Source: Tubulanus polymorphus
Taxonomy: Eukaryota; Animalia; Nemertea
Reading direction: 5' to 3'
Length of the DNA: 64,000 nt
Assembly (NCBI RefSeq): GCF_964204645.1
Contig: NC_134027.1
Span: 17,260,560 to 17,324,559 of the forward strand
Shown here: positions 27,890-58,954 of the stretch, one piece after another
Layout: each line of letters starts with the position of its first letter
How positions within the stretch are numbered: the stretch's first letter is position 1
Translations under genes and position numbers: made by a program
The notes under the pieces: generated by a model
The model's database searches: none
What the model was told of the DNA's origin: nothing
The model's input: only the letters and a program-made list of their open reading frames with translations

Positions 27890-30800
27890 GCGGACAATGG
27901 AGGAAGAAGGAAAGGACGTGGCTTGTGACAATTTCTCGGAAGGAACGATAGAGGAAGCAGAAAAGATGCAGGAAGATAGTTCGAAAGAAAGGATAGAAAG
28001 ATTAAAGATGCAGGAAGATAGCTGGATGGAAAACAAAAAACAGCTAAGTATCACAGGTGGTGGAGGTATCGAACCAATCATAATTGATGATAGTGATGAG
28101 AATGATTCTGATGATGAGCATGTATGTAGAAGAAATTTTTGTTACAATCCAACAGAAATGTGCCTCAATGACTATCAGTTTTTGAAAATTCCTCCTGTTA
28201 TGCCATCAAAGGTCACGTCATTCAGAATTTGTGACATGTCTAATTCATGTCATTTGGCTGATGATGCCCCCACTATGCCCCACAAAAATCAGTTGGAGGA
28301 CATAAAAGCACAGATGCAGTCAAGGATTGTCCGTGACCCTTCCATTAATATCCATGTGAGACTCGATACCGGCTGCTATTCTATTGATCAGATTAATAGG
28401 TTTCTTTTCTTACATTATGCTAAAACCAAACAACAAGATCTTTTTGCCATGAATCTTTGGGTAAATAGTAAGCCTTTAAGCCCCACTGATTCAGTCGATG
28501 TCTACTTTCTCTAAGATATCACGATTATCTCGCAGACAGAGACATAAACGATCAACTGAGTCTAATAATGCACTAGCTAGTTCTGAATTAAAGATGTCAG
28601 ACTCTCATATTGCCCCTAAAAATAGCAAATCAGTCTTAACTACAGCCAAATCTAAATCTACACCAATTTTGAATAATGAATCAACACCTGAATCAACACC
28701 AATTTCGAATAGTGAATCTGCACCAATTTTGACTAATGAATCAACACCTGAATCAACACCAATTTCGAATAGTGAATCTGCACCAATTTTGACTAATGAA
28801 TCAACACCTGAATCAACACCAATTTCGAATAGTGAATTCATCCATCTGAATTCTATATATTTAATGATGGCAATGGTTTTTTCAGAATCAAGCCATGTTC
28901 ATCAACATCTAGATTTTGTCCTTTTGTACAACATGATAAAGATGCAAGTCTAAAGCAAGGAGCATCTGACAATAATCTTAAATCAGTACTATGTAATTTT
29001 CATGTCCTGCAGTGTATTCGTCGCTTCATGAATGAAAATCAAGAACTTCGCTTATTTTGCAAGCCTCTAGAAACTGGTTTCAAATGCATTATGAGATCAT
29101 GGGATGCTTCCTCTAGAACTGATATAGCCAATTCATTTATTAGTTTTATTGAGAATGATATTTCTTTAGACCTTATGTCGCAAGATACAAAAACATTATT
29201 TATTGATTACCTAAAGAAGAATTGGTTTAATTCCCAAATTTGGTCTGATGCATTCAATGCTGAATCAATTTAATCAGTCAGACCAATCTAACAGAAATAA
29301 CCCTTTGCTATTAACTGATAATATTACTGAGCGCAAATTCAAACAAATAGATGATGTCTACTTAAGTGGACACCTAAATAAACTGATATCATCTTTTGTA
29401 CGATTACTGTTTGAAAATGTTTTTAATGATGAGATAAAAGCGACAAATATGAACAATCTCCAATTTAAGCAACTTGACCAACGAGTTAAGAATATACGTC
29501 ACCTTGAAAAGATAGAAAAGTGTTGCAAAAGAGCCTTGGATTTATTACAGAATAATGAGATTTTAAAATATGATGAAGAAACTAGTTGGTTTGTTGTGAA
29601 GAGTTCTTCACGAAAGAACTTAAATAGGTTAGAAGATAATGATAATTTTTTCAATGGTGATACTCAATATACATTCAATCAGCTTGATGTTTTAGAAGAA
29701 AGATTCCCCGATAAAGTATCAATATCCGAGGAACATTCATATGACATTTCAAAAAAATGCCGAAGGTACATAGGAAATTTAGATTCAATATCCAGTCGTA
29801 TCTTATTCAATTACGTTATTACAATCGTTCCTGAAAATTGTCTTTCGTACGTAGATGGTAATTGCCATTTAATCAATTTGAAACTAGGTATATGTACTTG
29901 TGAAGCTTTTATAATGATTGGACAACCATATTTTTGCAAACATCTTTTTGCCTGTTTTGCCCAAAAAACAATATAACCTCAACGAAGGCTTTAATTGATG
30001 CATATAAATTCCACATTGTGAAGCCTCTGCCAACTTACAATTTTACTCGACAGAATAGTTCTGTTTCATCTACCCTCATTGATAAGTTAAAAGATCATTC
30101 CCACATTGCTAGCTCGAATGATATCAATGCTGCTCGGAAAGGGCACATTCTAAGTATTTTACATAATGAAAGCCACTGTGGAATTAAGTTAATAAGCGGA
30201 CGACCTGCCAAACGACAACCTCACAATATGGCTCATAGGCGTGCTGAGGGTCCAATCAAGGACAATCAGGTTGCCATAAACCTTCCTGAACTTGAAGTGA
30301 TAGACCCTTACTGCCCTAAGGTTACAATGCCTAAAGATGCTGAGAATGCAAGACACGGAGGGCGAAAGATAATTAGACCTGCTAACAGAGGTGTATCCTT
30401 TTCTGCTATGGTTGAAAATGCTGCTATCAAACTAGGTAAAAAAGCTAAAATATCAGAAATTGAAACCATAGACTCCACTGATCCAGATCCTGGCAATGAT
30501 ATAGAGTTTTCAGCAGATATTTTAAGTCAGAATAAATCATCCTTACCGAAAAAATCAAAAGATACCAAACCAAAAGATATTAAGTCAATACCAGTTGTTA
30601 AAAATGACTCGAAGTCTGTTTTATTTGAAAAAAAGTATTGTCTGTTCCTTTTGTATTAAAGACAAAATAAATCCTCCATATCTTTGTTCATGTCGCAGGG
30701 AACTAGATAGGCACATATCCACTTCTCATTCATCCTTGAAACCTATCTCATGTGCTATTTGTTGGGCAGATGTGGTTATTAATTCACATGCAAGGGAAAC

Positions 30801-31994: not shown

Positions 31995-32720
31995 TTAGTC
32001 CTGTATGTCTTTTTTATCGCAATTTACTGTGGTTTATTCCTGTTTGTCCTGTATGTCTTTGTGATCGCGATCGCAATTCATTGGTTGCATTGTTTACTGT
32101 TAGTCCTGTATATTCTGTATGTCTATCGCAATTAAGTTAGTCCTGTATGTCCTGTATGTCTTTAATTAATTAGTTAATCGCAATTCATTGGTTGTTGAAT
32201 TGTCTACTGTTAGTCCTGTATGTCCTGTGGTTTAGTCCTGTATGTCTTAGTTAATCGCAATTCATTGATTGCATTGTTTACTGTTAGTCCTGTTTGTCCT
32301 GTATGTCTTAGTTAATCGCAATTCATTGGTTTTTGAATTGTCTACTGTTAGTCCTGTATGTCCTGTGGTTTAGTCCCGTATGTCCTGTATGTCTTAGTTA
32401 ATCGCAATTCATTGGTTGAATTGTTTACTGTTAGTCCTGTATGTCCTGTATGTCTATCGCAATTAAGTTAGTCCTGTATGTCTTAGTTAATCGCAATTCA
32501 TTGGTTGAATTGTCTACTGTTAGTCCTGTATGTCCTGTGGTTTAGTCCTGTATGTCTTAGTTAATCGAAATTCATTGGTTGCATTGTTTACTGTTAGTCC
32601 TGTATGTCTTAGTTAATCGCAATTCATTGGTTGTTGAATTGTCTACTGTTAGTCCTGTATGTCCTGTGGTTTAGTCCTGTATGTCTTAGTTAATCGCAAT
32701 TCGTTGGTTGAATTGTCTAC
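31995..32720. repeat. Complex minisatellite
   Basis: Interleaved TTAGTCCTGTATGTCCTG and GTTAATCGCAATTCATTGGTT modules in about 55-75-bp units. Confidence 0.9.
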
Positions 32721-33109: not shown

Positions 33110-33881
33110 TTACGAATCTGGACTACTTTCTGAGACCAATCGCGAGTCGAGTATCAACATACATCCAAGATACTAATGACTTTCTCAACAAAGTCAACTC
33201 CCTCCCTCCCCTCAACAAAGATGCGATATTGGTGACAATGGATGTCAAAAGTCTATACACCAACATTCCCCACGGAGAAGCCATCAGTAGCATCCTAAAG
33301 AGTCTAGATGACTTCCCGCTACAATACGCACTACGCACAATACGCACGCACAATACGCCGTCCAGACAAAAGACGCTTCGTTCAATTCCTGAATCTAATA
33401 CTGAAGAGAAATGAATTCTCTTTCGGGAAAAACGAACACCGCCTTCAAATAGAGGGTTGCGCCATGGGTTCGACTGTCAGCCCGAGTCTAGCGATCATAT
33501 TTATGCATTATCTCGAGACTAAAGGTATCCGCTCGGCACCGAACAATACTATACCCATGTTATATTGGAGATATAGATGATATATTCTCAATCTGGACCC
33601 ACAGTGAAGATAAACTACTCGAATTTTCCGAACATATGAACCAATCACACCGTACAATCCAATACGACACTGACACAATCAAGGGTACTCATTTTGATTC
33701 AATTTCACTGATCACCAAATACCATCCGAACACGGATAATATCCGTCAGTCGCTTACAAAACACTGGGAAATAATCCAATCGAACGCGACTCTGAGAATA
33801 ATATTCAAGGAACCTCCCAGAATATTATTCACACGCGGCAAAAATCTTAGAGACATTCTAGTCCGCGCGAGATGTGTGTAA
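33110..33881 (+). pseudogene. Penelope-like retroelement RT fragment, internally deleted
   Basis: YIQDTNDFL, LVTMDVKSLYTNIPH, GCAMGS, YWRY-DDI, and the linker TKYHP...KHWEIIQ...GKNLRDILVRA. Confidence 0.85.
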
Positions 33882-33944
33882 AGCACACCACCATCTCAAC
33901 TTCAATACCGTAATAATAGTCGGTTTATGTGCTTCATACGAATC

Positions 33945-34263
33945 AGTAATTAGAAGATGGCGTTTTCATACCAGAGGTCGAGAGGTCGAGACACCACTCA
34001 TCACAGCTAGGTTCTAGTGAGAACGGACGATTGCTCTGTGATGCACATATACAGTGAGTGCGCGTAACGACAACTGCGCGTGGATAGATAGATACAGTGA
34101 GTCGCTACCGAGAACGGTTATCAACGCGTGTGCTATAAATGTAGTACAGTGATTGCGTGTCAAGTGTGCTCGGATAAATAGATGCTGTGAGGCTTGGGTG
34201 AGAACGGTTAATAGCGTGCTTGTTATATACAAGGGGAAGTAATCCCCACTCATCACCACAAGT
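33945..34263. repeat. Left TIR of element B
   Basis: Reverse complement of 49701-50019 with about 8 mismatches by eye. Confidence 0.97.
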
Positions 34264-34724
34264 TATTTGTTTTCCTTATAAATGGGAGAGAATAAGACAG
34301 AACAAATTGATGTTAATGAAAATCAATATTATTGTCCATATTGTAAAAAATACATTGATAAATCTCAAAAATCGCGTCATGAAAAATCTTCAAATCATAT
34401 AAAAAATGTTATAGATTTTGAAACTTCAGAAAATTCCAATGAAAGAAAAGAACGATTAGAAAATATGAACGTGGATGAAATAAAATGTGAAGTTTGTAAT
34501 GAATTTATAGTAAAAAGGAATTATGATAGACATCTCGAATCACAAAAACACCATCAAAATTTGAGTAATAATGTTTTAGGAAAAGATTATTTCGATGATA
34601 AACCTCAAAAAGTAAAAAAACCAACTTCAAAAACTAAATCCATTTCAAATAAACCTTACATGGAAAATGTTAGAAATTATATTGATTCACTAGAAATAAA
34701 AGATACAATTGAAATATTAGAAAC

Positions 34725-35196
34725 TGTGAAGTCAATGTATATGTTATATGTAAAGTTATTTGTTTGTATAAAGTGTAACGGTAGTTGGTCGTTCTTTTGT
34801 TCGTTCTCTTGTCAGTATTCCAGTATTCTGTAGTATTGTGTTGTATTGTTGTTGTTGTCTGGTATTGTTATTTTCCCGCCTCAAAGTTTATTGGCATATC
34901 CGTTTCCGGGTTACTCCCGCATTTTGTGTGATATTTTTGGCACTTGGTCGTTGGAGCTCCTCGGAGTATCAGTGCTTGTCTGTGTGCTTGCTATATTGGA
35001 ATCTCCCTCAGTCGTCATGTAAGTTTTGTACAAATTTATATAAATTAATTATTGTAACTGTTTACAACATTTCCTACCCTTATAATATTTGTTTTTGTAG
35101 AAACGTGTAATATTCGTCGTTTGTTTTTGTCGTCGTAATTTGAAAATAAACGCATCAATGAGAAGTATCGACTGACTTCGTTTGTCATTTGCAACA
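34725..35196 (+). mobile_element. 472-bp solo LTR inserted in pPolB
   Basis: TGTG...CAACA, 5-bp TSD GAAAC (34720-34724 and 35197-35201); removing it restores EILETLRSKIGPAA, matching ETFKSDIGPAA in fragment A1. Confidence 0.88.
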
Positions 35197-38100
35197 GAAA
35201 CATTACGTAGTAAAATTGGTCCTGCAGCTATTATATTTAGATATTTTAAAGGTACAACAATAGAAGATTATAGTAAATTTAATGAAATAATAGAAGAAAT
35301 ACTTGTTTTGATAACAGATGTTGAATATCCAAAAATTAGTATAATAATTTCAAAAACGCAAATAAAAGAGAAGTTAGAAAAAGTATTTAATGACTTTAAA
35401 CGTCATATTGAAGAAAGATATTTTGAGGGTCCTGGTTTATCATTAAATGAAATTATATTTTTAGATTTAAATGTTTATAATACAAAAAGGAATAAAACAT
35501 CAAAAAGTAAAACAATGTTTAAAAATGATTCAAACTTTACAACAGAAAAGGATATTAAAGCATCATCAGCAGTAATAAATGTTCAAAATGAAGATAATAA
35601 ATGTTTTCTATGGTCAATTATTAGTTGCTTACATCCAACAGAAGATATAACACATAGTTTTAGAATAACAAATTACCGGAAATATGAAACATTATATGAA
35701 ATTGATCAATATCCAGTAACTATAAAAATGATACCCAAAATAGAAAAAATTAATAATTTAAAAATAAATGTATTCGAATTAATGCAATTACCAAATACAA
35801 AAGGTGAAAAAATTAAAGATTATACATTGGAAGCTTTATATTTAACAGAATATTATGATGATAAAAATGCTATAGATTTGTTATATTACAAAAAAGATGA
35901 AAATGAACATTATATGTGGTTAAAACAAATTGATTTATTCTTTAGAACAGAAAGTGATTTTGACAGTCATAAAATTTATCTATGTAGAAAATGTTTATCT
36001 AAATTTAGAACTGAGAATGCGTTACTAAAACATAAAGAATTATGTGATAATAAAGATTTTTGCAAATTGATAATGCCAACAGAAAAAGATTATAAATTGA
36101 AATTTACTAATCATAAATTTAAAAATATTGTTCCATTTGTAATTTATGGGGATTTTGAATCGGTGAATAAAGAATTAACTGATCAAGATAGAAAAGAAAT
36201 ATATAACAAAAAGCAATTATTAAAATCAATGGATAAAGGAAATTAATTAAATGAAGACACAACACACGACCCGCCAATTATAAATACAATTAAAAAAGTT
36301 CATCAAAGAGCTGCTGCTTATGGAATTTATATAAAATCAAATTATCCTGAATAATATGAAAGTCAATATATTTCTTTTAGAGGTGAAAATGTAGTTAATG
36401 ATTTTTGTGAAAAAAATGATTGAATTAGAAAGTGATTTTGCAAAATTATTAAACAAAAATAAAAGAATAGTTATGACAAAAGAAGATGAAATTGATTTTA
36501 ATTATGCAACTCATTGTAGTTATTGTGAAAAACGTTTTTATTCATTTGATAAAAAAGTTAGAGATCATGATCATTTGAATTCAAAATATCGTGGAGCTGC
36601 TCATGAAGATTGTAATTTACAAGCTAAGAAAGTTAATTTCGTACCAATATTATTTCATAATTTATCAGGCTATGATACCCATCTATTTATAAAACAATTA
36701 TCGGGAAAATAGGGCGCAATTAATCAAGAAATAGAAGAATATAATGCTATGAATGGTGTAAATGTAAGAAAATATGATTTTAAACTATTAGCTAAAACAT
36801 CTGAAAATTATATTTCATTTCAATTTGGTTGCATTAGATTTTTAGATTCTTATAGATTTCTAGCAAGTTCATTAGATAATTTATCAAAAAGTTTAGTTGA
36901 TAATGATTTTGTTATAACTCGATATTATTACCCAAATGCACAAGATTTTAAATTATTGAGATATAAATGTGTAATTCCTTATTCATTTTATAAAACACAC
37001 AATGATTTTAATGTAACAGAATTATTAAAAGATCAATTTTATGATCAATTAAAAGAGGAGTATGTGAAAGATGAAGTGTTTAATAGAACATTAAATATTT
37101 GGAACCATTTTAAGATGAAAAATCATGGTGAATTAGTTGATTTATATTTAAAATCAGATGTTATGATATTGGCTGACATATTTGAAAAATTTAGAGAAGT
37201 TAATTTAAATCATTTTAATGTTGATCCTTGTTATTGCTACTCTAGTCCTGGTTTAACCTGGCAATGTGGTTTAAAATATACTAACGTAGAATTAGATTTA
37301 TTAAAAGAACCAGACATGGTTTTATTATTTGAAAAATCAATTAGAGGTGGAATTAGTGGTGTTATGGGAGATAGATATTTTAAAGCAAATGATGAATATA
37401 AATTATTATATATTGACGCCAATAATTTATATGGTTGGGCAATGATGCAACCTCAACCATACAAAAATTTTATATTGACAGAAGTTGAAAATGATGATAA
37501 AACTGATTGGGAAAGCGCAATTGCGAGTTTAAAAGATGAAGCACCAATTGGTTATTTCTTTGTAGTTGATTTAGAATATCCTGAAAATATAAAGTTTAAA
37601 ACAAGAAACTTACCTTATTGCCCAGAACATTTAACCGTAGATGATAGTTATTTAAGTGAATACCAGAAGAAAATAAAACCGAAAGATCATGTTTTTACAG
37701 AAAAATTAATACTTACTCAAAATAATAAATACAATTATATTGTTCATTATAGAATGTTGAAATTTTATCTAAAACAAGGAATGAAATTAAAGAAAGTACA
37801 TAGATATATTGAATTTAATCAATCGAAGTGGTTAGAAAAATATATAGATTTCAATACTCAACAGAGAACCATATCAAAAACAGATTTTGAAAAAGATGTC
37901 TTCAAATTAATGAATAATAGTTTTTATGGTAAAACATGTGAAAATATTAGAAATAGAAATGATATTGAATTAGTAAATAATTCTGAAAGATTAAGACATT
38001 TACAATCAAGTCCTAGACATTTAGGAAATAAAAGATTTGAAGATTATTTAACAGCAGTTAAATTAAAAAGAACGTCAATGAAATTTAATAAACCTATATT

Positions 38101-38209
38101 CATTGGTTCAACTGTTTTAGAAGTATCAAAATTATTAATGTATGATTTTTATTATAATGTTTTACAACCACTTTTTGGGGAAAAGCATATTGAAATATTA
38201 TATTTTGAT

Positions 38210-39284
38210 TCTGTAACAGCTGACACCCCAATATTATAAAAATGTAATGATAAAATATTGATAAGAAGAATTTCAGAAATAATTCCAAAACAAAATGAAT
38301 GTTATATTTCATATGGTGAAAAAGAATTAATACAAATAAATGGATAATTGGATGTTTGGACAAGAAATGGATGGAAAAAATTAAAGAATATTATTAGGCA
38401 TAAAACAAATAAGAAAATCTATAGAGTTAGAACTAAATTAGGGTTTGTACATGTTACAGAAGATCATAGTTTAATTAAACGAAATGGCGATGAAATAAAA
38501 CCAACTGATATAAAAATTGGAGATGAATTATTACATAAAAGATTTTTCCAAAGAATGAATCATATGTCATTTGATAAAATAATTGATAATATTTATAATA
38601 TAGAACCTGAAACATTAGAAGAAAAAGAATATTTTATCAAAGGATTTTTTATGGGAGATGGTTCAGCAGGTGTGTATAAATATGTTTGGGGTAATAAATA
38701 TTGTTGGTATTTATGCAATCAAGATTTGATATTATTAGAAAGAATAAAGAAATATTGTGAAGAAGTTTATCCAAATAAAACATTTAAAATCATGGATGTT
38801 ATGAAATCATCAGCAGATTATAGAATACTTGTAAATAATCCTAAAGATTTTGCTATAAAATATAATGATGAATTCTATATTCATGCAATAGTGAAAAGTA
38901 CTTCAACTAAATACTTCAACTAAAGAAAAGATAGTTCCAGATTATGTATTAAATGCAAAAAATAATTTAAGAAAATGGTTCTTCATTGGATTCTACGCAG
39001 CAGATGGTGCTAACAAATTTACAAAGGATAAAAAGAGAACCTTTGCACAGAAAGGAAAAGTTGCTATATCAGGGTTAAATATATTATGTAATTCATTAGG
39101 CTTCAATATGAATATTGGATTGATTAAATCTAAACCAAATTGCTTTAATTTAAGCCACACAGAAAAAGATTTAACTGAAGAAGTTAAAGATTTATTTGAA
39201 ATATATAACCCAACAGATTATGTTTATGATTTATCAACTGAAGATGGTACATTTAAATGTGGATTTCCATTAATTTGCTTCAAT
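38210..39284 (+). mobile_element. Intein with LAGLIDADG homing endonuclease, inserted in pPolB motif C (degenerate)
   Basis: Block A SVTADTPIL after YFD; block B VTEDHSL; block C GFFMGDG; block E GFYAADG; block F YVYDLST; terminal Asn before TDS. Two in-frame stops and a 13-bp duplication. Confidence 0.95.
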
Positions 39285-39736
39285 ACTGACAGTTACATAC
39301 TAAAAATCAAGACAAATGACATAACAAAAGACTTAAAAACATTAAAACATCGTTTTGATTTTAGCAATTATCCCAAAGATCATGAACTATTTAGCAATGA
39401 TACTAAAAAGATTCCTGGTAAATTTAAAGATGAATTAGGGGGTGATGAAATGATTGAATTTGTTGGGATAAGAAGTAAAATGTATAGTTATAGAACAAAA
39501 GATCATGAAGCTAAAAAGTTAAAAGGAATAACAAAACATGTGGTTGATAAACATATAGAATTTCAAGATTATATAAAGTGTTTATATAAATCAATTGTAA
39601 TGAAACATAAAATGAATTGTTTAAGATCAGAAGATCACGAGATGAACATTAATGAAGTTTAAAAATCTAGTTTGAATCCATTTGATGATAAAAGGCATAT
39701 TTTAGATGATGGTATAAAAACATTACCTTATGGTTA

Positions 39737-41074
39737 TTAAAACATAAAATCAATATCATCATACTCGAAATCACTATTGGTTTCTTCATTTTCATTTAAT
39801 TGTTCTTGTATAATTTGTTTAGGTTCTTCCATTTCATTTTTCTCATTTAAATAACGTGTTATATTGTGCCACATTTCATCTCGCTCTCCTTGTTTCTTTT
39901 TGTTTGTTAATTCATCAAATGGAATTATAATATCTATGTTTAAATAATTTACAATCTTATTTAAAAAGAATTCATAATTAATTGAATCTGTTATTCTATT
40001 TTCCAAATGATACATTAATATTTGTTTGAATATTTTTTTTATATTTTCCATATCTTCTTCTGTTAATTTAGGTTTTTCATAATAATCGTTAAATAATAAA
40101 TGTAAATACATTTTCTTTTGTTTTGTCTTTTGTTTTGTGTTAAATGTTGATGGAATAATTGTTTTCATTATATCTTTTTTAGTTATTTCACCATTTTTAT
40201 TTTCTATCATTTTAATTTTTTCAAGCGATTGCATATATTCTGGTGTATGATCTTCTATAGAAAATATTTTAAAGATTTCATCTAGATAATTTAATTTTGG
40301 TTCTATGAGAAAATCTCTAGTTTTTTCATCACCCCATAAATTCTTTTGCCATCCAAATTCATTACAAAATAACACAGTACCTTCTTGTCTTAAGGTCGCA
40401 TAATTACATTGTGGGCATTTTTGTTTATAATTTATTGGTTATAGATCTTCATTAAGCTCCTGGTATTTTCTTACGTTTTCTTTATGTTTTATTTTTCTAT
40501 TATGTAGATTTAAATTACTTGTTATAATAATCAATTTACAATATTTACAATAATATGTTTTTCTTGTTAATTCATTATATTGTTTTTCTAACTTTTCAAC
40601 TGTTTCTTTATTATCTGGTAACGTTTTCTCATATTTTATTTTTTCTAATATTTAATTTTTTCTTTCATTGAATTCTGCTTCAAATTTATTATAAATTTTA
40701 TCTATATGTACTTTACGAAATTGATGATTCTCCCAAGCTTCTATATTTTCAGGGCTATATTTTATTCGACAAGGCACACAGAAATGATATTTTATATTAT
40801 CCTTATCATAGAATAAGAAAGGTCTTTTCCAAATAATTTCAGGTTCAGTTTCAACAGAATTACTATTACTTTCGTTACTATCAACATTAACCGTTGTGTC
40901 ATTAATTTTACACTTCTCTGAATGTTTTTTAACATAAGTTCTTGAGAATAATTTATTACATTTTGGGCAGTTTATTTTAGGGGTTTATAATTTTCATCAT
41001 GTTTTTTCATGTCGAGCCATATTACTTTTTCTTTGAAGTTCACCATAAATTTCGCATGGTATCTTCTCATCCAT
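39737..41074 (-). pseudogene. Zinc-finger protein with C-terminal VLTF3-like (poxvirus A2-type) late transcription factor domain
   Basis: Several C2H2 fingers, then KCPQC...FCNEFG ribbon, PKLTEEDMENIKKIFKQI, SINYEFFLNKI, ERDEMWHNI; upstream part broken by stops and frameshifts. Confidence 0.65.
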
Positions 41075-41142
41075 TTATTTAGGAAAAATTTTATTAAAAT
41101 TAATTTTTAGTGATGAGCGGTAATTTTTTTATGTTATAAATA

Positions 41143-41896
41143 ATGGTAGAATTAAAAGAATACAGAATATTTAATCTAGAAAACTTACAAATTATAAATC
41201 ACATAATTTACTAGTACAATTAGATAGAGAATTTAAGAATTGTGTAGATTAAAATTAGTAAATATAAGTTTATGTAATTCTTTTTATAATGTAACGGATA
41301 AAAGTCTAGAACATTTAATTGTTTCAATCTTTTACAAAAAAATGAATAAATGGTTTTTTATATGTTCAAAACCAGGATTATATAATTAAGATACATTAGC
41401 ACAAGAAATTAATAGAAAAGCTCGAGCTAAATTAGGAAGTGATTCCGGATTTAGTATTAGAATTTTAAAAAGTGATAGTTCTAATAAAATAAAGATTAGG
41501 TAAGCTAATGACGAACAATTTAAATTTACAGTAAGAAAACCTTTAGGTAAACTGTTAGGAATTAACCCAGATATTGTTACAGCATACGCAGAGGGTAGAT
41601 CAAACTTAATACCTTACACACACTTCTATATTTATTGTAATTTAATTGATCCTACACAAACATTTGAAGCAACTAAAGATAAAACTTGCAATTCTAGTAT
41701 ACTAAATATTTTACCATTAAAAAATGTTAAACAATTTGGAACTCAAATAAATTATAATGTTACAGAATGTGATTTTAAACCTTGCATTCCGCATTTCAAT
41801 AATTTCAAATTAGAAATAAGAAATCATAATGGTTATTTAATTGATTTGAATAACTTTCCTGTGATATATGAATTAGTTATAAGATGTAAAGAGTAA
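41143..41896 (+). pseudogene. Putative minor capsid (penton-like) protein
   Basis: NSFYNV, KPGLYN, LGKLLG, FYIYCNLID, SILNILP, LEIRNHNGYLIDL...YELVIR: pattern typical of Polinton minor capsid proteins; internal stops. Confidence 0.6.
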
Positions 41897-41913: not shown

Positions 41914-42273
41914 ATGAATATAACTGTTGGACCGAGTATATGTTTTGGATTTGATTTTAAACGTGAGAAAGAAATGAAATTTAACATTAATGATGTAATT
42001 ACACATATTAAAAATATTGCATTTTCTAATGAAACAACATTTGAGTATGAAAAAACAATAGATAAAGAAACTTTAAATGTAGAAAAGATTACTAATTTAA
42101 TTAGAGAATCTTTAAGATTTTATGAATTAGATGAAGATTTTATCATAGATGATATTAAAAACATATTAACCAAAATATATGATAATCATAAAAGTAGTAA
42201 TGAAATAAATGTTCAATCAATCATCACTAAGATAACTAAATATTTTGAAGATTGTAATTTTTTTGATAAATAA
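41914..42273 (+). CDS. Polinton hypothetical protein, 119 aa
   Basis: Open ORF starting in TAAATG; its stop overlaps the next TAAATG. Confidence 0.6.
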   Translation: MNITVGPSICFGFDFKREKEMKFNINDVITHIKNIAFSNETTFEYEKTIDKETLNVEKITNLIRESLRFYELDEDFIIDDIKNILTKIYDNHKSSNEINVQSIITKITKYFEDCNFFDK

Positions 42274-42495
42274 ATGAGTGATAATAAGTGGATAATAACT
42301 GGATTATATAATGGAGCATTACTATCAGTTTGAACTGTTGGTTATTCCATGGTATTAAAAAAAGTATTTAAAATGGGAAGTGTTAATGTTGATAGATTTG
42401 ATATAAATGATATCTTAAAATTAACATTAGCAGTTACTTTATCCAATTTAACTATTGATTATTTGGAAAAACAAAAATATATTCCTCCCATATAA
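42274..42495 (+). pseudogene. Small hydrophobic Polinton protein
   Basis: TAAATG start, one internal stop, ends YLEKQKYIPPI; homolog at about 58348-58507. Confidence 0.55.
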
Positions 42496-42519
42496 AAGTG
42501 TAATTATTTTACTAAATAA

Positions 42520-42942
42520 ATGGCTTCTGCAATTATAACTATTATAGGATCGGCAATTGTTAACGCTTTAGCATTTACTGGTGGTGGATATTTATTTAAG
42601 CACATTGATAAAAATGGATCATTAACAGAACAAAAAAGACATAACTTAGCATTAGAGAAATACCATAAAGCAGCAGAAGAATATTGAGTAAATAGGCAAA
42701 ACTATATGGATTATATTAACAAGGAATTATATGATCAGAAGATTTCACATAGAGATTTTCAATCAGTCGATGATGCAATGAGTTTATATAACGCGGTAAC
42801 CAATAAAGAAAAATTACATCTACATAAACCTACAATATCAGATTATTATACCCCAAGTAAAGAACAACAGAAATATGAAATAATATGGATTTTAGGTGGA
42901 ACAGTTATTGTTATATTTGTAGCATATAGATTTACTAATTAG
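42520..42942 (+). pseudogene. Small protein with hydrophobic N-terminus, coiled coil and C-terminal TM segment
   Basis: MASAIITIIGSAIVNALAFTGGGYLFK...EQKRHNLALEK; one internal stop; homolog at 58528-58950. Confidence 0.7.
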
Positions 42943-42960
42943 TAATTTTTTTCTAAATAA

Positions 42961-43395
42961 ATGGAAGATAAAGTTGATAATATTGATATCATTCCTCATG
43001 ATATAAATAAAACTAAATTAAAAACATATTTAGAAAAACAAATATTAGAATTTGAAAATGATTTAAAAGTTAAAAAGAAAAAATATTTAAAATCTAAAAT
43101 TATATATTATTTTATTATTAGTGATTCAGTTACAATTAGTTCTGTAATAACATTTCTAGCAATATTCAGTCCATTAACACCTTTAGCTATATCAATTGGC
43201 GTATTAGGATTATCATCAAGTGTATTAACCAGTATAAGTTCAAAATTAAATATAAAAAGTAATAAAGAAAAAATTAAAACTAATATAAAAGAAATTAATA
43301 AATTAAAGAATACACTAGATTATATAATAAGTTTAAATGGCCATATAACAGCTGCAGAACAAGATAAATTATTGAAAGAATTAGTTAATTATTAA
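42961..43395 (+). CDS. Coiled-coil protein with two hydrophobic segments
   Basis: Open 144-aa ORF with TAAATG start; homolog at 60697-61130. Confidence 0.75.
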   Translation: MEDKVDNIDIIPHDINKTKLKTYLEKQILEFENDLKVKKKKYLKSKIIYYFIISDSVTISSVITFLAIFSPLTPLAISIGVLGLSSSVLTSISSKLNIKSNKEKIKTNIKEINKLKNTLDYIISLNGHITAAEQDKLLKELVNY

Positions 43396-43411
43396 TATTT
43401 TAATTATATAA

Positions 43412-44677
43412 ATGGTAGATAGTTTTCCAAAAGCTTTCCAATATAATAAATCAATTAAATATAAAATTCCTGCAATAGATTTTAATAAAGATATTTCATA
43501 TAGAAATGAAGATTTGAATTCATTAATTGATTTATATATTTATGTTACTGAAAGTAATAATTTTCATGGAAAGAAGGAAAATATATTTCATGTGTATACA
43601 ATTAATTTCAAAAATTTAAATGAGGCAGAACAATGGTTATTAAAATCTAATATGAAGTATTGGCAGAACCAATTAAATTTTGCTGTTTATTGCGCAACAA
43701 CAGGATGTGGAATTAGTTGGAATGATCATTTAAACAAACCAAGTTTACCATTAATTTTATCACTTTTTAGATTTCATACGTATTTTCAAATAAAATTGAT
43801 ATTAGATGAATTAGAATGTCCTTTACCAGGTTCAAAATATTTTAAAGAATTGAATAATAATATTAATTTTTCTAAGTTTTATAAAATATGTAATGAATTT
43901 AATATTAATTCAAATAAAGATTTTAGAGCAAAAATTGGTACAATGGGTGGATTAGGAATATTATATACTAAAGAATTTGGAAAAATAATGACAAATTCAG
44001 ATGTAAGAACACTGAATTGGAATGAATTACCAAAATATTATAATAATATACAACAACAAAACAATAATGGTTGGGTTAATTTCATTTTAGATAATAGTGA
44101 AGGTTTTACTAAAGCTGGTATACAAAGAATAAATCAATCTATTAGAACTTATTTGATATGTATTCTAGGTGCACAAGTTGAAACAAGATCCCCAATAATT
44201 GGAAATGATAACACTTCATTCGATGCGCAGAAACAATTTAAAGTTTTATTTGAAGATTCCATTCATAATGATAAAAATAGATCGATTCCAGAAAACATTG
44301 TGAGATATCAAAATTATTTAGATAAATCACATATTAGATTAAATTATTGTATAGGCCCTAATCTATTAATTATTTCTAATGATTTAGTACTAAAGATGGG
44401 AAACATAATTGGTTACAATAATCTAATTAAAACTGCAACAATAAATAATTCATTTGGATTAAATGATATAAATAAAAAGATTATTACTGCTCCAAAATTA
44501 ATGGAAGGCGAAAAAAATAAAAAACATATTCAATCAACAGAAACTAAAACTAAGAATATTGAATTAAATAATGATAATGATAATAATAATACTGATAATG
44601 ATAATAAATTCCATGAAAATACTAAATTAGCTTTAACCTGTATAGGAATTGTTATAGGAGGAATATTATATTTTTAA
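43412..44677 (+). CDS. Conserved Polinton protein of unknown function with hydrophobic C-terminus
   Basis: Open 421-aa ORF; YWQNQLNFAVYCATTGCGIS and GFTKAGIQRINQSIR are conserved in the homolog at 61147-63165. Confidence 0.8.
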   Translation: MVDSFPKAFQYNKSIKYKIPAIDFNKDISYRNEDLNSLIDLYIYVTESNNFHGKKENIFHVYTINFKNLNEAEQWLLKSNMKYWQNQLNFAVYCATTGCGISWNDHLNKPSLPLILSLFRFHTYFQIKLILDELECPLPGSKYFKELNNNINFSKFYKICNEFNINSNKDFRAKIGTMGGLGILYTKEFGKIMTNSDVRTLNWNELPKYYNNIQQQNNNGWVNFILDNSEGFTKAGIQRINQSIRTYLICILGAQVETRSPIIGNDNTSFDAQKQFKVLFEDSIHNDKNRSIPENIVRYQNYLDKSHIRLNYCIGPNLLIISNDLVLKMGNIIGYNNLIKTATINNSFGLNDINKKIITAPKLMEGEKNKKHIQSTETKTKNIELNNDNDNNNTDNDNKFHENTKLALTCIGIVIGGILYF

Positions 44678-44699
44678 TTTTAATTTTTTTATTATATAA

Positions 44700-46155
44700 A
44701 TGGATGTAGAAGGTGGAGAAGATATTGGAATGGATAATTTTGATGAACCCGGCATAACTGAAGAACAACCGCCTGATTTTAGTGAAACAAGTTTTAATGA
44801 CGGTAATGAGCCAGAATATAATAATAATTTAAATATGCCTGATTATATTAAAAATGCAGAATCACAATTAAATCCTGAAAATTTAGACCCAGATTTAGTA
44901 TAACAAGATTTAGATAATTTAAACAAAATACCTAAATTAGAACGAATAATTGAAAATTCTAAACTTAACATAAATGATGAAGACGTTGGACCTTTAGCAG
45001 ATCAATTAAAATTTTTAGATAATGGTAAATGGTATTATCATTTGAAAGGTGATTATTATATTGATATCACTTATAAAAATAATAAAAATAAAATATGAAC
45101 AAAATCAACTTTGAGTGATTTAGATCCAGATAGAATTAAAAGAATTAGTAATAGTAATGTAATAACTGATGTTATAAAACAAGAATTAACTGATAATGAT
45201 ATAGACGTATTTAAATAAAGAATTAATGAATTATTTGAAATAATCAAAAAGAAATCAGAAACAGAAACAACTTCTGAACAGAATATAACTTCCTAAACTA
45301 GTAAACTTAAATCAAATAAAGTTCCAATTGAAAAACTTTTACCGAATGGATTAATTGATGCAACAGATCAAGAATTAGAAGATTTAAATAATATATTTTC
45401 TGTTGAAGCAATTAGAGAAATTAAAAGTATAAGACTTGCATCTGATAAAATTTCGCATGATAAAAGTATAAGATATTTTAAAATTAGAACTTTAGAAAAA
45501 GAATTAACTGATAAAAATAAAGAAATAGAACAATTAAAGTCTGATTTAGATCATCAAGTAATTGATGAAATAGAATATAGGCAAAAAGAATTACGTTTAG
45601 AAAAAGAAAAAGATGATTTAGAATATAACATAGAATTACAAAAAGTAGAAATAAAATTATTGTTAAAAACATATGATTATAATATTAATAGATTAAAAGT
45701 TATTTTTAAAGATTTGTTGATTAAATCAGATTCTGAAATATCATTAAAAGATAGAATAAAGTTATTATTTAAATTAGAAGGAATAACAATTCTTTCAATT
45801 CTAACAGCTGTAACTATGTTATTTACAACAATTGGTTTAGCAATATCAAATGCTTTGAAATCTACTCCTACTCCCAATAAACCGGATAAACCCCCGAATG
45901 ATAATTCAATACAAGATAAAGTTAAAGATGGTTTAAAGAAAATATTTATGGGAACTATCTAAAAAATCTGCTGCAGCTTTACCAGGAATTATTGCATCAA
46001 TTGTTGGTTTTATATTGAAATCTGCAGGAAACATTATTAACTTTGCTGCTGAACATATTATTTTATTTTTAATTACAGTTGTAAGTGCTATTATTTTTGG
46101 GTTAGTGAATATGATATCAAAAAGATATCAAGAAAAAATAATAAAAAATAAATAA
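44700..46155 (+). pseudogene. Large acidic/coiled-coil protein with hydrophobic or amphipathic C-terminal helices
   Basis: Fragments 44700-44903 and 45660-45962, continuing AAALPGIIASIVGFILKSAG...HIILFLI; many stops. Confidence 0.6.
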
Positions 46156-46175: not shown

Positions 46176-47423
46176 ATGATTGGGAGTTATATAAGTCCTT
46201 CTAAGATTTCTAGAATATCTAATGCTATTAAAGCAGAAAGATCACATCATATAATTACTCATAACCCTTCTAATATTAATCCTGATGAAACTTTATATGT
46301 TAGAATTCCGAGATTAACACAAAATACTTTTTATGTTCCAAATAGTATTTATTTATCAGCCGATATAAAAGTAACTGGTCATGATAATAATTATGTTGTC
46401 GATAATGTTGGGAGATATTTGATTAAAAAATTAACTATATAGATTGGTCCAGAAACAGTTTTCTCATTAGATGATTATAATTTATTTATGCATTATAAAG
46501 ATTTATGGCTAACTAAAGAAAATAGAAATAATATGATATTTCAAGGAATCCAATCAGAAAACCATAATAAATTAAGATCAGGAGCTAAGAACGCAAAAGT
46601 AACTCGTGCCACAGATAATTTGATTAAAAAGATTTATGGAAGCAAATATAAAATTCCATTAGACTTTGAATTGATAAATAATATTGCCCCTTTATATAAA
46701 TATGTATTTCAAGGAGATATTATATTTGAGATAACATTTGCTCCTGTAAATGAAATTGTAATATCTAGCGTTGTTAAAGATATGGGTTATAAATTATCGA
46801 ATATATGTTTAGAATATGATACAGTAACTGATGAAAATATTTCAAGTATAATTCAAACTCAATACAATCAAGGATTTTCATTATTATATGATTATATTGA
46901 TAAATTTAAAACTGTAACTATTAATGCAAATGGTGAAATTATTAATGAGAATATTAACTTCCCAAGAAGATCTATTAAAGGTATATTAATATTTTTTACT
47001 ATTGCAACATATTCTAATGGCGCAATAAAGGTTGATAATTATTATAATCCTGAAATAACAAAAGTAGAAATAACTATCGAAGGAATAGCAAATAAAATAT
47101 TTTGTCAAGGAATGAGAATGATAGATCAGTGGCCAGAAATTAGAAAACATTTTATGAATGAAAAAGTGAAATCATCTGAAAATTGTAATATTAATCAAAT
47201 TGATTATTATACCGGCAATAAATATGCATTATGGTTAGATTTTAGAACAACAGAGGATAATTCATTACATGGTTCTGGGAAAAAACTACAGAACACAAAA
47301 GATGGAATACAATTATTCATGGCAAAGAAAATAGGAGACAAAAATTTTAAAATGCACATTTATATTATATCTGACGCACAATTAAATATTGTAAATTCAC
47401 AATTAGATAGTATTCAATATTAG
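46176..47423 (+). pseudogene. Putative major capsid protein (double jelly-roll)
   Basis: About 415 codons with one in-frame stop at 46440; beta-rich; NPSNINPDETLYVRIP, VGRYLIKKL, YKIPLD, YKLSNICLEYD, PRRSIKGILIFF pattern of invertebrate Polinton capsids. Confidence 0.75.
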
Positions 47424-47453: not shown

Positions 47454-47685
47454 ATGGGTGGTAAAAAAACTCCTAATACTAAAGAACAATATTTAAGAAA
47501 TTTATATTACAACCCTAAGAGTTCGGTCGCTTATTCTTCTACCAAAAATTTATGGCGTCAAGTGAAACAAGATAAATAAGATAAGATAATCCCACAAAAT
47601 TTAGTTAAATATAAAGATATAAATGAATTTATGTTAGAACAACCAACATACACAACACATAAAAAAATTGTTAGAAAATATATAT
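47454..47685 (+). pseudogene. N-terminal remnant of Polinton retroviral-like integrase
   Basis: LRNLYYNPKSSVAYSSTKNLW...INEFMLEQPTYTTHKKIVRKY; no DDE core follows. Confidence 0.7.
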
Positions 47686-47689
47686 TAAA

Positions 47690-48078
47690 CTTTAAATTTA
47701 GATAATTGTATTAAAATAGCAATAGATATTTATAAAGGATCAAATACATTATTCATTATAGATGATTGCGCAAATTTACATGATTCAAAAGTGAGAGAAA
47801 GTGAGTTATGTTATCAGGCTTTCTCTGGGAGACATTTTGGGATAACAACATGGGTTTTAAATCAAAAATATAATTCGATTGTTAAAGACTTTAGAGAAAA
47901 CATTAGATTTCTAGTTTTATTCTGCAATAAAGATAGAAAATCGATGAAAAATGCACTTGAGGAAAATGATATTATTCCACATGATTTACATAATGAATAT
48001 ATGGATAAATTGAAAAATAATAAAAGATCAAAATTACTATTTAGATTACAACACCCATTTAAATATGAATTTATTTAA
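47690..48078 (+). pseudogene. C-terminal half of A32-like packaging ATPase
   Basis: Walker B LFIIDD, SGRH, WVLNQ, FREN; no Walker A upstream. Confidence 0.8.
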
Positions 48079-48079: not shown

Positions 48080-48355
48080 TTCAACTGGTTTGTTAATCTA
48101 GTTGAATTCTAGTAACATTCTAGTTGAATTCTAGTTATTAGTAGTTGAAACAAAAATCAAATAAAATTCAACAATATTTTAACTAGCTTGTTAATCTAGT
48201 ATAATTTTAGTTACATTCTAGTTGAACTCTAGTTATTGGTAGTTGAAACAAAAATCAAATAAAATTCAACAAGAAATAAATAAAAACAACAATATTTCAA
48301 CTAGCTTGTTAATCTAGTTGAATTCTAGTTACATTCTAGTTAAATTCTAGTTGCA
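48080..48355. repeat. Three about 100-120-bp repeats rich in CTAG and GAATTC short palindromes
   Basis: CAACTAGCTTGTTAATCTAGTTGAATTCTAGTTACATTCTAGTT repeated three times. Confidence 0.85.
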
Positions 48356-48384
48356 ACATCACAACAAATTTTTTTGTTATATAA

Positions 48385-49284
48385 ATGGGAGGTGAAAAGA
48401 AAATAAAATCTAAAAATGGTGATGTTCCAATTGAAAAAACTTAACAGAAACAAAATTAACTCCAGATGATGGTGCTTTGAATAATGTTACAACAAATAAT
48501 AATTATGAATATTATCTTTATTGTAAACATCAATTAGAAATATTAATATCATCTGGAAAATGTAAAAATTTTATCGGTAAAAATTTAACTTATAATGAAT
48601 TAGATACAATGAAATCAGATGAAATTATTAGATTATTTAAGACTTATGAAACCGCGAGAACAACTAGAATTAATGACGCGATCACAGAAAATGTAGTAAA
48701 AGGTTATAGTAAATTATGTAATTATATGCTGCCAATTCAAGAGGAAAATAGATTATATGCTGATTTGAAAAATGATTATTTAGTTATGACTGAATTAAAT
48801 AAATGGATTGGATATTTATCATTTCAATTAGGTGGATTTATGACATTATTATCAACTGGACTTATGACATTTTCAAATATTGAAAGTAAAAATATTTCTA
48901 TAATAAATGAACAAGGTGGAAGAAGTGAAGAAAAACCGAGATCACAGAAACAAATTGAATGGTCTCGGCAATTAGGAATTAAATCACAAGAATATAAAAA
49001 AGCTGTAAAAGAAAAAATAAGTAATAAAAATGTTAATAAAAATGGTGAATATTGTTATTTCTACTCCTTCTAATGATAGAATATTTGATAAATGTCAATA
49101 TTTTACAGTTGGATTTGTAATTGTATTCATTTTGATTGGGTGTAATTGGTATAAGAAATCAAATAAAATTCATGATATTAATAATTCTGAAACAACTGCT
49201 ATCAAAAATGAAAATACTTCTGAAATTCCAAAATTGATAATAAAAAAATGGATTAATATTTTAGATAAAAAGCAAAAAAAATAA
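48385..49284 (+). pseudogene. Two or more Polinton hypothetical proteins, frameshifted or fused
   Basis: TAAATG starts at 48385 and 48907; ORF pieces 48477-49073 and 49030-49284, the latter with a TM-like segment. Confidence 0.5.
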
Positions 49285-49406
49285 TTGAATATCTCACTAC
49301 TTTTGTCTATCTATGCGGGGCAATTAAATTGTCCAGATAAGTCATTTCGGATTCTAGATATCCATTATTTTTAATAATTTATTTTTTTAAATTTAATCAA
49401 CAATTT

Positions 49407-49690
49407 CTAAATCATGATGGCCATCTTCATTTTTCCATGATAGATTATTTTAAATCCTTCTAAATCTTTTAATTCCTCTGTACTCAATGAAACCCATTTA
49501 TCAGGTAAAAATACTTTAAATTCTCGCGATGTACTAACATTGCAGTAGCTTAAATTAGCTGATACTTTCTCTCCATATTTTGTTTTTATCTTTTCTAATT
49601 TCAATACTTTATGTTCAATTTCTTTTGTAACATCAACTAACTTTTTTATTTCAAATAGTTTTTTTGCTGGTTTTATTCTGTTATTTGTTG
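49407..49690 (-). pseudogene. Small basic terminal protein (TKYG...FLP family)
   Basis: KIKTKYGEKV...KVFLPDKWVSLSTEELKDL aligns with NKYGDRL...YLPDRFYGLSSEDLEEL at 57225-57566. Confidence 0.6.
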
Positions 49691-49700
49691 TTAAAAAATT

Positions 49701-50019
49701 ACTTGTGGTGATGAGTGGGGATTACTTCCCCTTGTATATAACAGGCACGCTATTAACCGTTCTCACCCAAGCCTCACAGCATCTATTTATCCGAGCACAG
49801 TTGACACGCAATCACTGTACTACAGTAATAGCACACGCGTTAATAACCGTTCTCGGTAGCGACTCACTGTATCTATCTATCCACGCGCAGTTGTTGTTAC
49901 GCGCACTCACTGTATATGTGCATCACAGAGCAATCGTCTGTTCTCACTAGAGCCTAGCTGTGATGAGTGGTGTCTCGACCTCTCGACCTCTGGTATGAAA
50001 ACGCCATCTTCTAATTACT
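49701..50019. repeat. Right TIR of element B
   Basis: Reverse complement of 33945-34263. Confidence 0.97.
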
Positions 50020-50838
50020 CGAATCCTTCAATCACGATTTATGCAAACTAAGGTGAAAACCGTTTAAATCAGTTTCCGTTCTGCTTATGTATAGACACTC
50101 TCCGGACTCGATATACAGCCGCTCGGACTGATGCTAAGGGCAGTCAATTTACTCCCGACGTGTCGTTTTATCAACATAACACTATATCAATGTTCGATAA
50201 CCAAGGAATACCTGGTCGAATCAATACCGCCCGGTGGTCACACACAAAAATCGGATCAGATCACATCAGATCGATGATTTTAAGAACCTCCTCAATCCAA
50301 ACAGATTGAAATATAGACGTAGTTGATACATACGCCGACAGATGATCGGTGCGATTACCCTCGCAACACCAACGGACCCTGTTTTGACAGGACGGAAAGT
50401 ACTCTCCACACGAGACGAGGAAAGCCCGTCCCACCTTTGCAAAAATCTAACATCCATATCGGTTCTCACCACTACCCGCCACTGTAAGGCCACGAATGTG
50501 TTGATACACACGCCATCTATCTGATTAGGCTATCACTACTATTCGCAATGACTTATAATATGGAACACTCATACACCGACGTCTGTTTATAATAAAAAGA
50601 AATAACACAATGTGTACCTCACATCTCAATATGAATTACTCAGTTTTATTTCTACTGTGAATATTAAAATTATTACATTGCTACACCCTCGTGAAACTGG
50701 CTGTGTTATTATAAGTATTATAAAATGATATTAGCATCTCTTTAGGTTAATACTAAATTGACTAGGTTAGTTAAAGTTAAAGAATTTTTATTCAAAATAT
50801 AAAGTATTCTCTTTTGAAAAGAATTGTAAAAGAAAATA

Positions 50839-57060: not shown

Positions 57061-57224
57061 GAGCTCTCATTTTTCTACTCACTCGCCCTCTCAACCTTTA
57101 ACCTGAACCCCTATATTCTCAATTACTCCTAATAATGTTCATATATATGAATAACATATAAATGAATAACATTTATAAATGAATAACTTCTAAAATCAAT
57201 TTTAATAAAAAATATGTTATTAAA

Positions 57225-57566
57225 ATGGAGAGTAAACAAATACACAGTGAATTCTTAAATAGAATCAAAGATATTACAAATGTCAAATCTGTATATTATA
57301 AATTTAAGAAGTTAAATAAATTAACAATTCATAAGAAATATTTAATTAAAAATATTGATACAGCTTCTAATAAATATGGGGATAGATTAATAATTCACTT
57401 AGAATATGAAGGGTTAAAATGAAATAAATATAAATTCGGAACATATTTACCAGATAGATTTTATGGATTATCAAGTGAAGATTTAGAAGAATTACGTTCA
57501 GGTTTTTTCTATTTCATATATAAAGGTAAGAACGAAAAAGGGCACCATGAAATAGATTTCGAATAA
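57225..57566 (+). pseudogene. Small basic terminal protein (homolog of 49407-49690)
   Basis: One internal stop at 57420; KYG and YLP motifs. Confidence 0.6.
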
Positions 57567-57580
57567 AATATGTAAAATAA

Positions 57581-58345
57581 ATGGCAGAATTAAAAGAATA
57601 CAGAATATTTCATTTCATTATTTTGATTCAAGAAGACTTACAAATTATAAATCACATAATTTACTTGTACAATTAGATAGATAATTTGAAAAATTGCGTT
57701 GATTTAAAATTAGTAAATATAAGTATATGTAATTCGTTTTATAATGTATCGGATAAAAGTCAATTTATTCTTTGATGATTCATGTAAGGAGAAATAATAA
57801 ATGATATCATCTATTTTTAAGACCAGGATTATATAATTTAGAGACTTTAGCGCAAGAAATTAATGGAAAAGGTAAAACAAAAATGAGCGCAGCTGCTGGA
57901 TTTGGAATTAAATTTTTAAAAAGCGATAATAATAATAAATTAAGAATTAAGTTAGCTAATGAAGAACAACATAAATTTATAGTAAGAAAACCATTAGCTA
58001 AGCTGTTAGGAATTACACCAAATAAACTTTATTCAAATGTTGATTCTACACCAAATATAATGCCTTTTACACATTTTTATATTTATTGCAATTTAATTGA
58101 TCCTACAAAAACATTTGAAGCAACTAAAGATACAATTTGTAATTCTAGTATATTGAATATTTTACCATTAAAAAATTTCAAACAATTTGGAACTCAAATA
58201 AATTATAATTTAGGTGAATGTGATTTTAAACCATGCATTCTACATTCTAACAATTTTGAATTAGAAATAAGAAATCATAATGGATACTTAATTGATTTTG
58301 ACTTTCCTGTAATTTATGAATTAGTTATAAGATGTAAAGATAAAT
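57581..58345 (+). pseudogene. Putative minor capsid protein (homolog of 41143-41896)
   Basis: High similarity, e.g. THFYIYCNLIDPTKTFEATKD and LEIRNHNGYLID. Confidence 0.6.
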
Positions 58346-58954
58346 TGACTGTTGGTTATACAATGGTATTAAAAAAGTATTTAGAACGGGAAGTATTAAT
58401 GTTGATAAATTTGATATAAATGATATTTTGAAATTAACGTTAGCAGTAACTTTATCTAATTTAACAATTGATTATTTTGAAAAACAAAAATATATTCCTC
58501 CTATATAAATGCATAATTTCTAAATAAATGGCTTCTGCAATTATAACTATTATAGGATCGGCAATTTTTAACGCTTTGGCATTTACTGGTGGTGGGTATT
58601 TGTTTAAGCATATTGATAAAAATAGTTCATTAGGAGAACAAAGAAGACATAATTTAGCATTAGAGAAATACAATAAAGCCGCAGAAGAATATAGAGAAAA
58701 GAGACAAAACTATATGGATTACATTAACAAAGAATTATATAATCAGAAAATTACACATAGAGATTTTCAATCAGTCGATGATGCAATGAGTTTTTAGAAC
58801 GCAGTAACAAATAAAGAAAAATTACATTTACGTAAACCTTAATTATCAGATTATTATACACCAAGTAGTGAACAACAAAAATATGAAATAATTTGGATTG
58901 TAGATGGAACAGTTATTGTATTATTTCTTGCTTATAAATTGACAAATTAGTAAT

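Follow-up and report, generated by a model that had tools for sequence, protein, structure and literature searches.

A VLTF3 homologue with a zinc-finger extension and poxvirus-late-like gene starts in a Polinton of Tubulanus polymorphus

We analysed a 64,000-nucleotide stretch of the genome of the nemertean Tubulanus polymorphus (hereafter, the window), which contains a minus-strand gene resembling VLTF3, a late transcription factor of poxviruses. The gene is carried by a 16,075-bp Polinton with a GC content of 25%. The features of this element are as follows, in window coordinates.

33939–33944, no strand: left 6-bp target-site duplication, CGAATC, identical to 50020–50025
33945–34271, plus: left terminal inverted repeat (TIR), 327 nt, beginning AGT, 97% complementary to 49693–50019
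34282–39740, plus: pPolB gene, broken (PF03175, 62 bits; PF02945, E 3e-4; mapped against an open sibling)
38210–39284, plus: intein with LAGLIDADG domain, broken, at the YFD/TD site of pPolB
39737–41074, minus: VLTF3-like gene, broken (four zinc fingers followed by a whole VLTF3 and then an acidic tail; two frame changes, two stops)
41143–41896, plus: likely minor capsid protein gene, broken (DUF5901, E 5e-4 only; pieces mapped)
41914–45962, plus: six accessory genes, each starting ATAAATG (119, 73, 140, 144 and 421 aa, and a broken stretch from 44700)
46176–47423, plus: gene for the major capsid protein, with one stop (in sibling L045, Capsid_N at E 0.0097)
47454–47681, plus: 5′ remnant of the rve integrase gene, mostly deleted (rve, 41.5 bits in sibling L045)
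47689–48078, plus: 3′ portion of the gene for the A32-like packaging ATPase (in sibling L045, Pox_A32 at 50.4 bits)
48385–49497, both strands: three small genes, each with an ATAAATG start (two plus, one minus beside the right TIR)
49693–50019, minus: right TIR, pairing with the left TIR
50020–50025, no strand: right 6-bp target-site duplication, CGAATC, identical to the left copy

The TIRs with AG...CT ends, the 6-bp target-site duplication and the gene set of pPolB, rve integrase, packaging ATPase and capsid identify the element as a Polinton; the gene set was established partly through sibling copies, and the integrase and ATPase are partly deleted in the window copy. Neither an RNA polymerase nor a capping enzyme was present among the scanned ORFs of the element. 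The features of a Nucleocytoviricota (NCLDV) genome, namely an RNA-primed PolB and the NCLDV core gene set around the VLTF3-like gene, were not found in this 16-kb element, which has a protein-primed PolB and an integrase. Searches of the host genome (G000) for adenain (PF00770) and NCLDV capsid families were blank, with the positive controls equally silent. The label minor capsid for 41143–41896 is our assumption from position. The 144-aa accessory gene is SLATT-like (SLATT, E 0.012).

The pPolB carries zinc fingers at its N-terminus and an endonuclease-VII-like insert, and its stretch at ~34725–35195 was not present in the siblings examined. The intein is a ~355-aa insertion relative to the pPolB of L115 and L063, and in sibling L043 it matched PF14890 (39.7 bits) and PF14528 (26.4 bits). 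Its junction gave 196 exact matches in the host genome. The intein-free allele of pPolB is found in a sister family (see below) and in L115, an element of another assembly. A passage of PMC11071308 mentions the idea that polinton pPolB may contain insertions derived from inteins.

Several other features were noted in the window. A partial Polinton at 1–1100 consists of the 5′ end of a sister-type polymerase, and a second one at 57100–64000 contains a small gene, a minor-capsid-like gene, an accessory block and an internal duplication, and is interrupted by a LINE reverse transcriptase at 59056–60432. Two copies of a TIR-bounded host element (3609–5690 and 17633–21415) are ~97% identical and have inverted ends of 186–234 nt. 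A coding-like array of 12/24-nt units, tandem or near-tandem, lies at 28619–28837, and an AT-rich satellite at 32022–32720. The main element contains a ~100-nt triplication (48080–48390), and it seems to be inserted in a reverse-transcriptase-like fragment (33308–33881), which we take to be Penelope-type.

The VLTF3-like gene and pPolB are convergent, and their stop codons overlap at 39737–39740. The parts of the gene, all on the minus strand, are as follows.

41072–41104: start context, AATAAAA, 11-nt spacer, TAAATG
40439–41074: N-terminal extension with four C2H2/U1-type zinc fingers (zf-U1, 27–31 bits)
40352–40417: VLTF3-type C4 zinc ribbon, collinear with the A2L ribbon of protein P0008, its fourth ligand being F here
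40417–40406: CPQC
40366–40352: CNEFG
39845–40081: C-terminal helical VLTF3 domain (PF04947, 31.6 bits, E 1.6e-7, profile 84–164)
40072–40019: PKLTEEDMENIKKIFKQI
39985–39953: SINYEFFLNKI
39880–39860: DEMWHNI

An earlier note on this sequence had described a convergent gene adjoining the polymerase, with a ribbon, SINYEFFLNKI and a D..W..I motif. Every motif that it quoted was located in one open minus-strand frame at 39737–40438. The note had also given the gene C2H2 fingers. Four fingers are indeed present, but the gene is disrupted by two frame changes near 41000–40975 and by in-frame TAA stops at 40652–40654 and 40439–40441, and this damage splits the fingers over separate frames. The fingers are similar to the N-terminal fingers of the polymerase that the element encodes (blastp, E 2e-9 to 4e-3, without composition correction). 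In regards to the ribbon, the four cysteine positions are kept in 9, 10, 10 and 10 of 10 open siblings, so that the F in the fourth position of the window copy is a C in all ten.

The gene is a genuine VLTF3 homologue, as the earlier note had claimed; a Pfam domain match, a protein search, a profile-profile match and a predicted-fold match support this identity. The Pfam check suggested by that note succeeded only in part. Pox_VLTF3 (PF04947) was not matched by the whole protein, but the trimmed C-terminal 79–91 aa of the window copy scored 31.1–31.6 bits (E 2e-7, profile 84–165) against a gathering score of 25 bits; the trimming was guided by a six-frame family search of the genome. Trimmed domains of the window copy and L012 together scored 31.1–33.1 bits, covering profile positions 84–165 only, and two further sequences, L007 (24.6 bits) and a 142-aa ORF (23.8 bits), fell below the cut-off of 25. 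The six-frame search gave 81 matches among 150 scored loci, nearly all at profile positions 83–165. The ribbon profile PF08792 (A2L_zn_ribbon) had no match in the protein.

A homology search of 1.84 billion proteins returned five matches, comprising three unnamed relatives, one spurious match (P0009, a fish Ig-repeat protein, E 4.7e-4, which we discarded) and a single canonical VLTF3 with an A2L ribbon (P0008, E 4.2e-4). The named relatives of P0008 are entomopoxvirus VLTF-3 proteins (60–63%). P0008 is collinear with the last 233 aa of the VLTF3-like protein at ~25% identity, and the profile-profile comparison gave a probability of 96% (E 4e-9). Word-index homolog searches found no protein in one case and one protein in another, a phage collection gave no match, and scans of viral contigs with the VLTF3-like gene, its alignment, the capsid and the polymerase of a giant virus described below gave zero loci.

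The alignment behind our first structure model contained canonical VLTF3, and a second model was therefore built without any (pLDDT 68). Both models retrieved VLTF3 proteins first. With the second model, cowpox VLTF3 ranked first in Foldseek (E 1.9e-6, TM target 0.57), followed by VLTF3s from many large-virus families, and a swinepox VLTF3 fragment superposed with an rmsd of 3.6 Å over 148 columns. The 16 Foldseek matches at E ≤ 1e-3 comprised eight named VLTF3s, four unnamed proteins and four with other names. The structure prediction that the earlier note had proposed thus favoured its claim, and the lack of any profile or structural match to VLTF3, which it had named as contrary evidence, was not what we observed. 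Comparison with TFIIB-like folds gave weak values (Rap94, E 0.13; TFIIB, E 2.9 and Z 3.9; cyclin K, Z 4.9 and rmsd 3.4 over 74 aa). Searches of the PDB with the VLTF3 model gave nothing specific, and the best match of a wide fold search, KaiA (Z 8.0), is an unspecific helical bundle.

The protein shares with poxvirus VLTF-3/A2 (PF04947 and PF08792) the C4 ribbon, two helical domains, the I(N/S)YE-F-L-KI motif and the terminal W helix, all retained and collinear over the C-terminal ~230 aa. The closest proteins by search were the VLTF-3s of entomopoxvirus and cowpox, and the likeness to entomopoxvirus proteins may be inflated by AT-rich composition. The Polinton protein differs in its low identity, in a 212-aa N-terminal four-finger extension and acidic tail, in the unmatched PF08792 and in being encoded by an element without an RNA polymerase gene.

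We examined the sequences at the gene starts, defined as the first ATG of matching open sibling ORFs. ATAAATG was found at 13 of the 14 gene starts of the element, the fourteenth being ATAAATAATG. The same heptamer occurs at 10 of 367 internal ATGs and at none of the 72 in-frame ones (Fisher p 3e-17 against gene starts). Upstream of TAAATG, T occupies positions −7 to −11 in 10, 12, 12, 11 and 12 of 13 starts, and A is found at −14/−15 in 11 of 13. T5 followed by ATAAATG occurs eight times in the element, against 0.8 ± 1.0 in 200 shuffles and zero in 38.8 kb of other window DNA. The motif was found in none of the seven distinct host histone start contexts listed, which form a small and GC-richer control. 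Tandem histone clusters also mark the host as an animal. Gaps between the element genes are 16–19 nt, and the motif is also present at genes without an upstream tandem neighbour, namely pPolB, the VLTF3 gene and the TIR-side gene. The start is often TATATAAATG, without AATAAA, and several other starts include AATAAA.

According to passages of PMC11980589 and PMC5294985, vaccinia late promoters have TAAAT(G) overlapping the start codon, together with several Ts of which the one at −10 is conserved. Intermediate promoters have TAAA with an upstream A-rich stretch, A2L itself being an intermediate gene. The TAAA initiator is read directly by the poxviral polymerase itself, as a passage of PMC12917281 states. 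At the level of sequence, the start motif of the element matches the vaccinia late promoter as published. The start of the VLTF3 gene has an A-tract 11 nt upstream of TAAATG in addition to a T-run, and by analogy it may be an intermediate-class promoter.

At least 151 siblings of the VLTF3 gene were found in the host genome (563 candidates, 150 scored). We examined 62 loci, selected in part because their frames were long, and obtained 29 distinct open VLTF3 genes of 432–447 aa, which encode the four fingers, the whole VLTF3 and the acidic tail in one protein. An ATAAATG start was listed for 28 of the 29. In two of them (L032 and L103), the VLTF3 gene begins directly after a TIR-type start context, an arrangement that suggests shortened or rearranged elements. 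L115 (45% aa identity) keeps the layout and the gene starts and has the same convergent VLTF3–pPolB pair; in L116 (about 34% protein identity), the conservation concerns the start of the VLTF3 gene only. The spacing of AATAAAA, 11 nt and TAAATG is the same in L012, L115 and L116. The starts were compared across the VLTF3 family, L115, L116, the sister family and the host histones, and all the Polintons compared are related.

The sister Polinton family of the same genome (L143/L127, L147, L149/L150, L151/L152, L153 and L062/L063) has no VLTF3. Its pPolB is intein-free and has 1340 aa where open, a small gene separates pPolB from the likely minor capsid gene, and a U1-finger gene and an HNH gene are present. 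The structural block and the ATAAATG starts are the same as in the VLTF3-bearing family. These results indicate that VLTF3 is accessory and dispensable in cis.

The dN/dS ratio among the VLTF3 copies was 0.62 overall and 0.46–0.57 in the helical domains, with 0.72 for singleton and 0.61 for shared substitutions, which suggests weak to modest purifying selection. Such ratios, together with the lack of VLTF3 in the sister family and the AATAAA within several starts, would fit a passenger gene captured from a large virus, in which case the start motif of this AT-rich element would be only a translation context or would serve the preceding gene as a poly(A) signal. We regard this explanation as very unlikely, as L115 retains the gene together with its convergent position and start spacing, L116 retains the start, and the motif, with its fixed T block at −7 to −11, also marks genes that have no upstream neighbour and often contains no AATAAA.

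In view of the poxvirus-late-like gene starts, transcription of the element probably relies on the RNA polymerase of a large DNA virus that co-infects the cell. The earlier note had reached a related view, that the element supplied or redirected a factor for the transcription machine of a helper virus. The starts at 13 of 14 genes strengthen its helper part, whereas the word supplied is weakened by the sister family, which has the same starts and no VLTF3. The note's premise that VLTF3 works with the viral RNA polymerase was too strong. Mriyaviruses keep VLTF3 and lack an RNA polymerase according to passages of PMC11253617, and the VLTF3 gene alone therefore implies no helper.

The same viruses provide the analogy for nuclear transcription of the element by RNA polymerase II of the host, in which VLTF3 would be a viral TFIIB-like adaptor bringing the host enzyme to an element-specific late promoter. 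Mriyaviruses conserve both VLTF2 and VLTF3 and are thought to be nuclear (PMC11253617), the Polinton integrates, core genes of coral polintoviruses are expressed in host transcriptomes (a passage of PMC11131425), and the folds of Rap94, TFIIB and cyclin show a weak resemblance to the model (E 0.13–2.9, Z 3.9–4.9) that would fit this reading. We nevertheless consider this reading unlikely. The motif overlaps the ATG, and if it served as a TATA box transcription would begin inside the ORF; the starts are identical in the family without VLTF3; the host histone starts differ; and AATAAA occurs about once per 200 nt of the coding strand (74 hexamers in 14.6 kb, 63 expected). Depletion of AATAAA proved non-discriminating with regard to nuclear transcription, since the ORFs of host retroelements show no depletion either (7 against 7.4). 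An idea of poly-T termination was also dropped: on the coding strand, depletion affects A-runs (43 against 64; 9 against 24.5) as well as T-runs (6 against 13.9).

Large viruses with their own transcription enzymes do reach this germ line. An endogenous giant virus on contig C8 (G000:C8:4,523,718–4,637,975, L129–L140) is ~114 kb long, gene-dense and 50% GC, with ~13-kb inverted repeats that are >99% identical. It encodes both large RNA polymerase subunits, PolB and an A32 ATPase, together with a pox-type poly(A) polymerase, helicases of the SF2 and origin-binding types and YqaJ; a cap methyltransferase was matched weakly. A search of the genome for RNA polymerase genes gave this virus and three intron-split host genes. 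The best solved matches of its polymerase were PDB 8q3b/8xx4/8y0e, presumably African swine fever virus RNA polymerase. No relatives of the virus were found in viral_contigs. The case for this virus as the helper is unsupported. Its gene starts differ (TAAATG at 1 of 88, TATAG-like at 13 of 88), and no VLTF3 was detectable in it with our own profiles or with Pfam. A promoter shared with the late genes of the helper is a classic sign of a virophage. A passage of PMC11464507 may be compared. The start motif of the Polinton matches the published vaccinia late promoter, but not the C8 virus, the only large virus found in the genome.

We give an about even chance to the explanation that the element is transcribed by the polymerase of a pox- or asfar-like helper virus, and that its VLTF3 is an optional adaptor favouring its own late genes. 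The excised element would replicate by its own pPolB in a cell infected by such a virus, and its TAAA initiators would be read by the polymerase of the helper. VLTF3 would be made first, its start having the A-tract 11 nt upstream as in an intermediate-class promoter, and the protein would enter the late complex of the helper through its ribbon and helical domains. The extra fingers may anchor it on the DNA of the element and thereby tilt late transcription to the capsid and packaging genes. This advantage would be optional because of the sister family without VLTF3. The use of VLTF3 by mriyaviruses without a viral RNA polymerase, the expression of coral polintovirus core genes in host transcriptomes, the differing starts of the C8 virus, the starts kept in the family without VLTF3 and the weak selection count against the helper reading.

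The divergence of the protein from canonical VLTF3 (about 25% identity), its extra fingers and its dispensability in cis would also suit a decoy that binds the late transcription complex of a helper and slows helper expression, to the benefit of the element or in defence of the host. Known Polinton-like viruses inhibit or parasitise large viruses, entomopoxviruses included, as passages of the literature state. We hold a decoy to be quite unlikely, given that the protein retains its ribbon, its two helical domains and its terminal W helix, all collinear with the canonical protein, and that expression of the element itself would depend on the late machinery that a decoy slows.

The pairing of VLTF3 with Polintons, whose rarity the earlier note implied, is already published. 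A passage of PMC11131425 on stony corals, citing Krupovic & Koonin 2016, states that polintoviruses have VLTF3 homologues, and figure keys of PMC8502044 and bioRxiv 2026.06.19.733378 show VLTF3 as well. With such group-2-like polintoviruses (corals, PMC11131425; MELD viruses, PMC8502044), the element shares pPolB, rve, A32 and capsid genes, TIRs, a 6-bp target-site duplication, a SLATT-like gene and the VLTF3 homologue. The passages concerned give no domain architecture, promoter analysis or mechanism; beyond them, the present family has a zinc-finger fusion, poxvirus-late-like starts, a pPolB intein and a sister family without VLTF3. Mriyaviruses, which are small dsDNA viruses, likewise carry VLTF3 and lack an RNA polymerase, but passages of PMC11253617 give them an NCLDV-type capsid, VLTF2, an HUH endonuclease and no DNA polymerase, in contrast to the pPolB and integrase found here. 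Virophages and entomopoxvirus-associated Polinton-like viruses (PMC11296320) are similar in being small integrating viruses thought to depend on large viruses; the difference is that the start motif here does not match the gene starts of the one large virus found in the genome.

Our literature search, with subscription papers and supplements outside its scope, revealed no account of poxvirus-type promoters for animal Polintons. Looking up terms in PMC11296320 and bioRxiv 2026.10.13.758929 revealed none either, and the words "transcription", "VLTF" and "motif" are nowhere in the text of PMC11296320. The promoter grammar, the zinc-finger fusion and the families with and without VLTF3 appear to be new, and the VLTF3–Polinton pairing was already known.

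A VLTF3 gene in a Polinton is by itself not news. The replication strategy of polintoviruses is named a key unknown in a passage of PMC11131425, and a predicted promoter of 25 nt that matches the late promoters of poxviruses offers a direct test of how animal Polintons are transcribed and of whether they live as autonomous nuclear viruses or as satellites. With VLTF3 present in one family and absent from its natural counterpart, what the factor contributes can be singled out. More tentatively, and with somewhat greater doubt than belief, we suggest that a major group of animal Polintons may be virophage-like parasites of pox- or asfar-like viruses, which would run an intermediate-then-late cascade on the RNA polymerase of the helper, with the zinc-finger-tethered VLTF3 of the present family capturing the helper's late machinery. 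The C8 giant virus, with its RNA polymerase, would then indicate that such helpers infect this host lineage.
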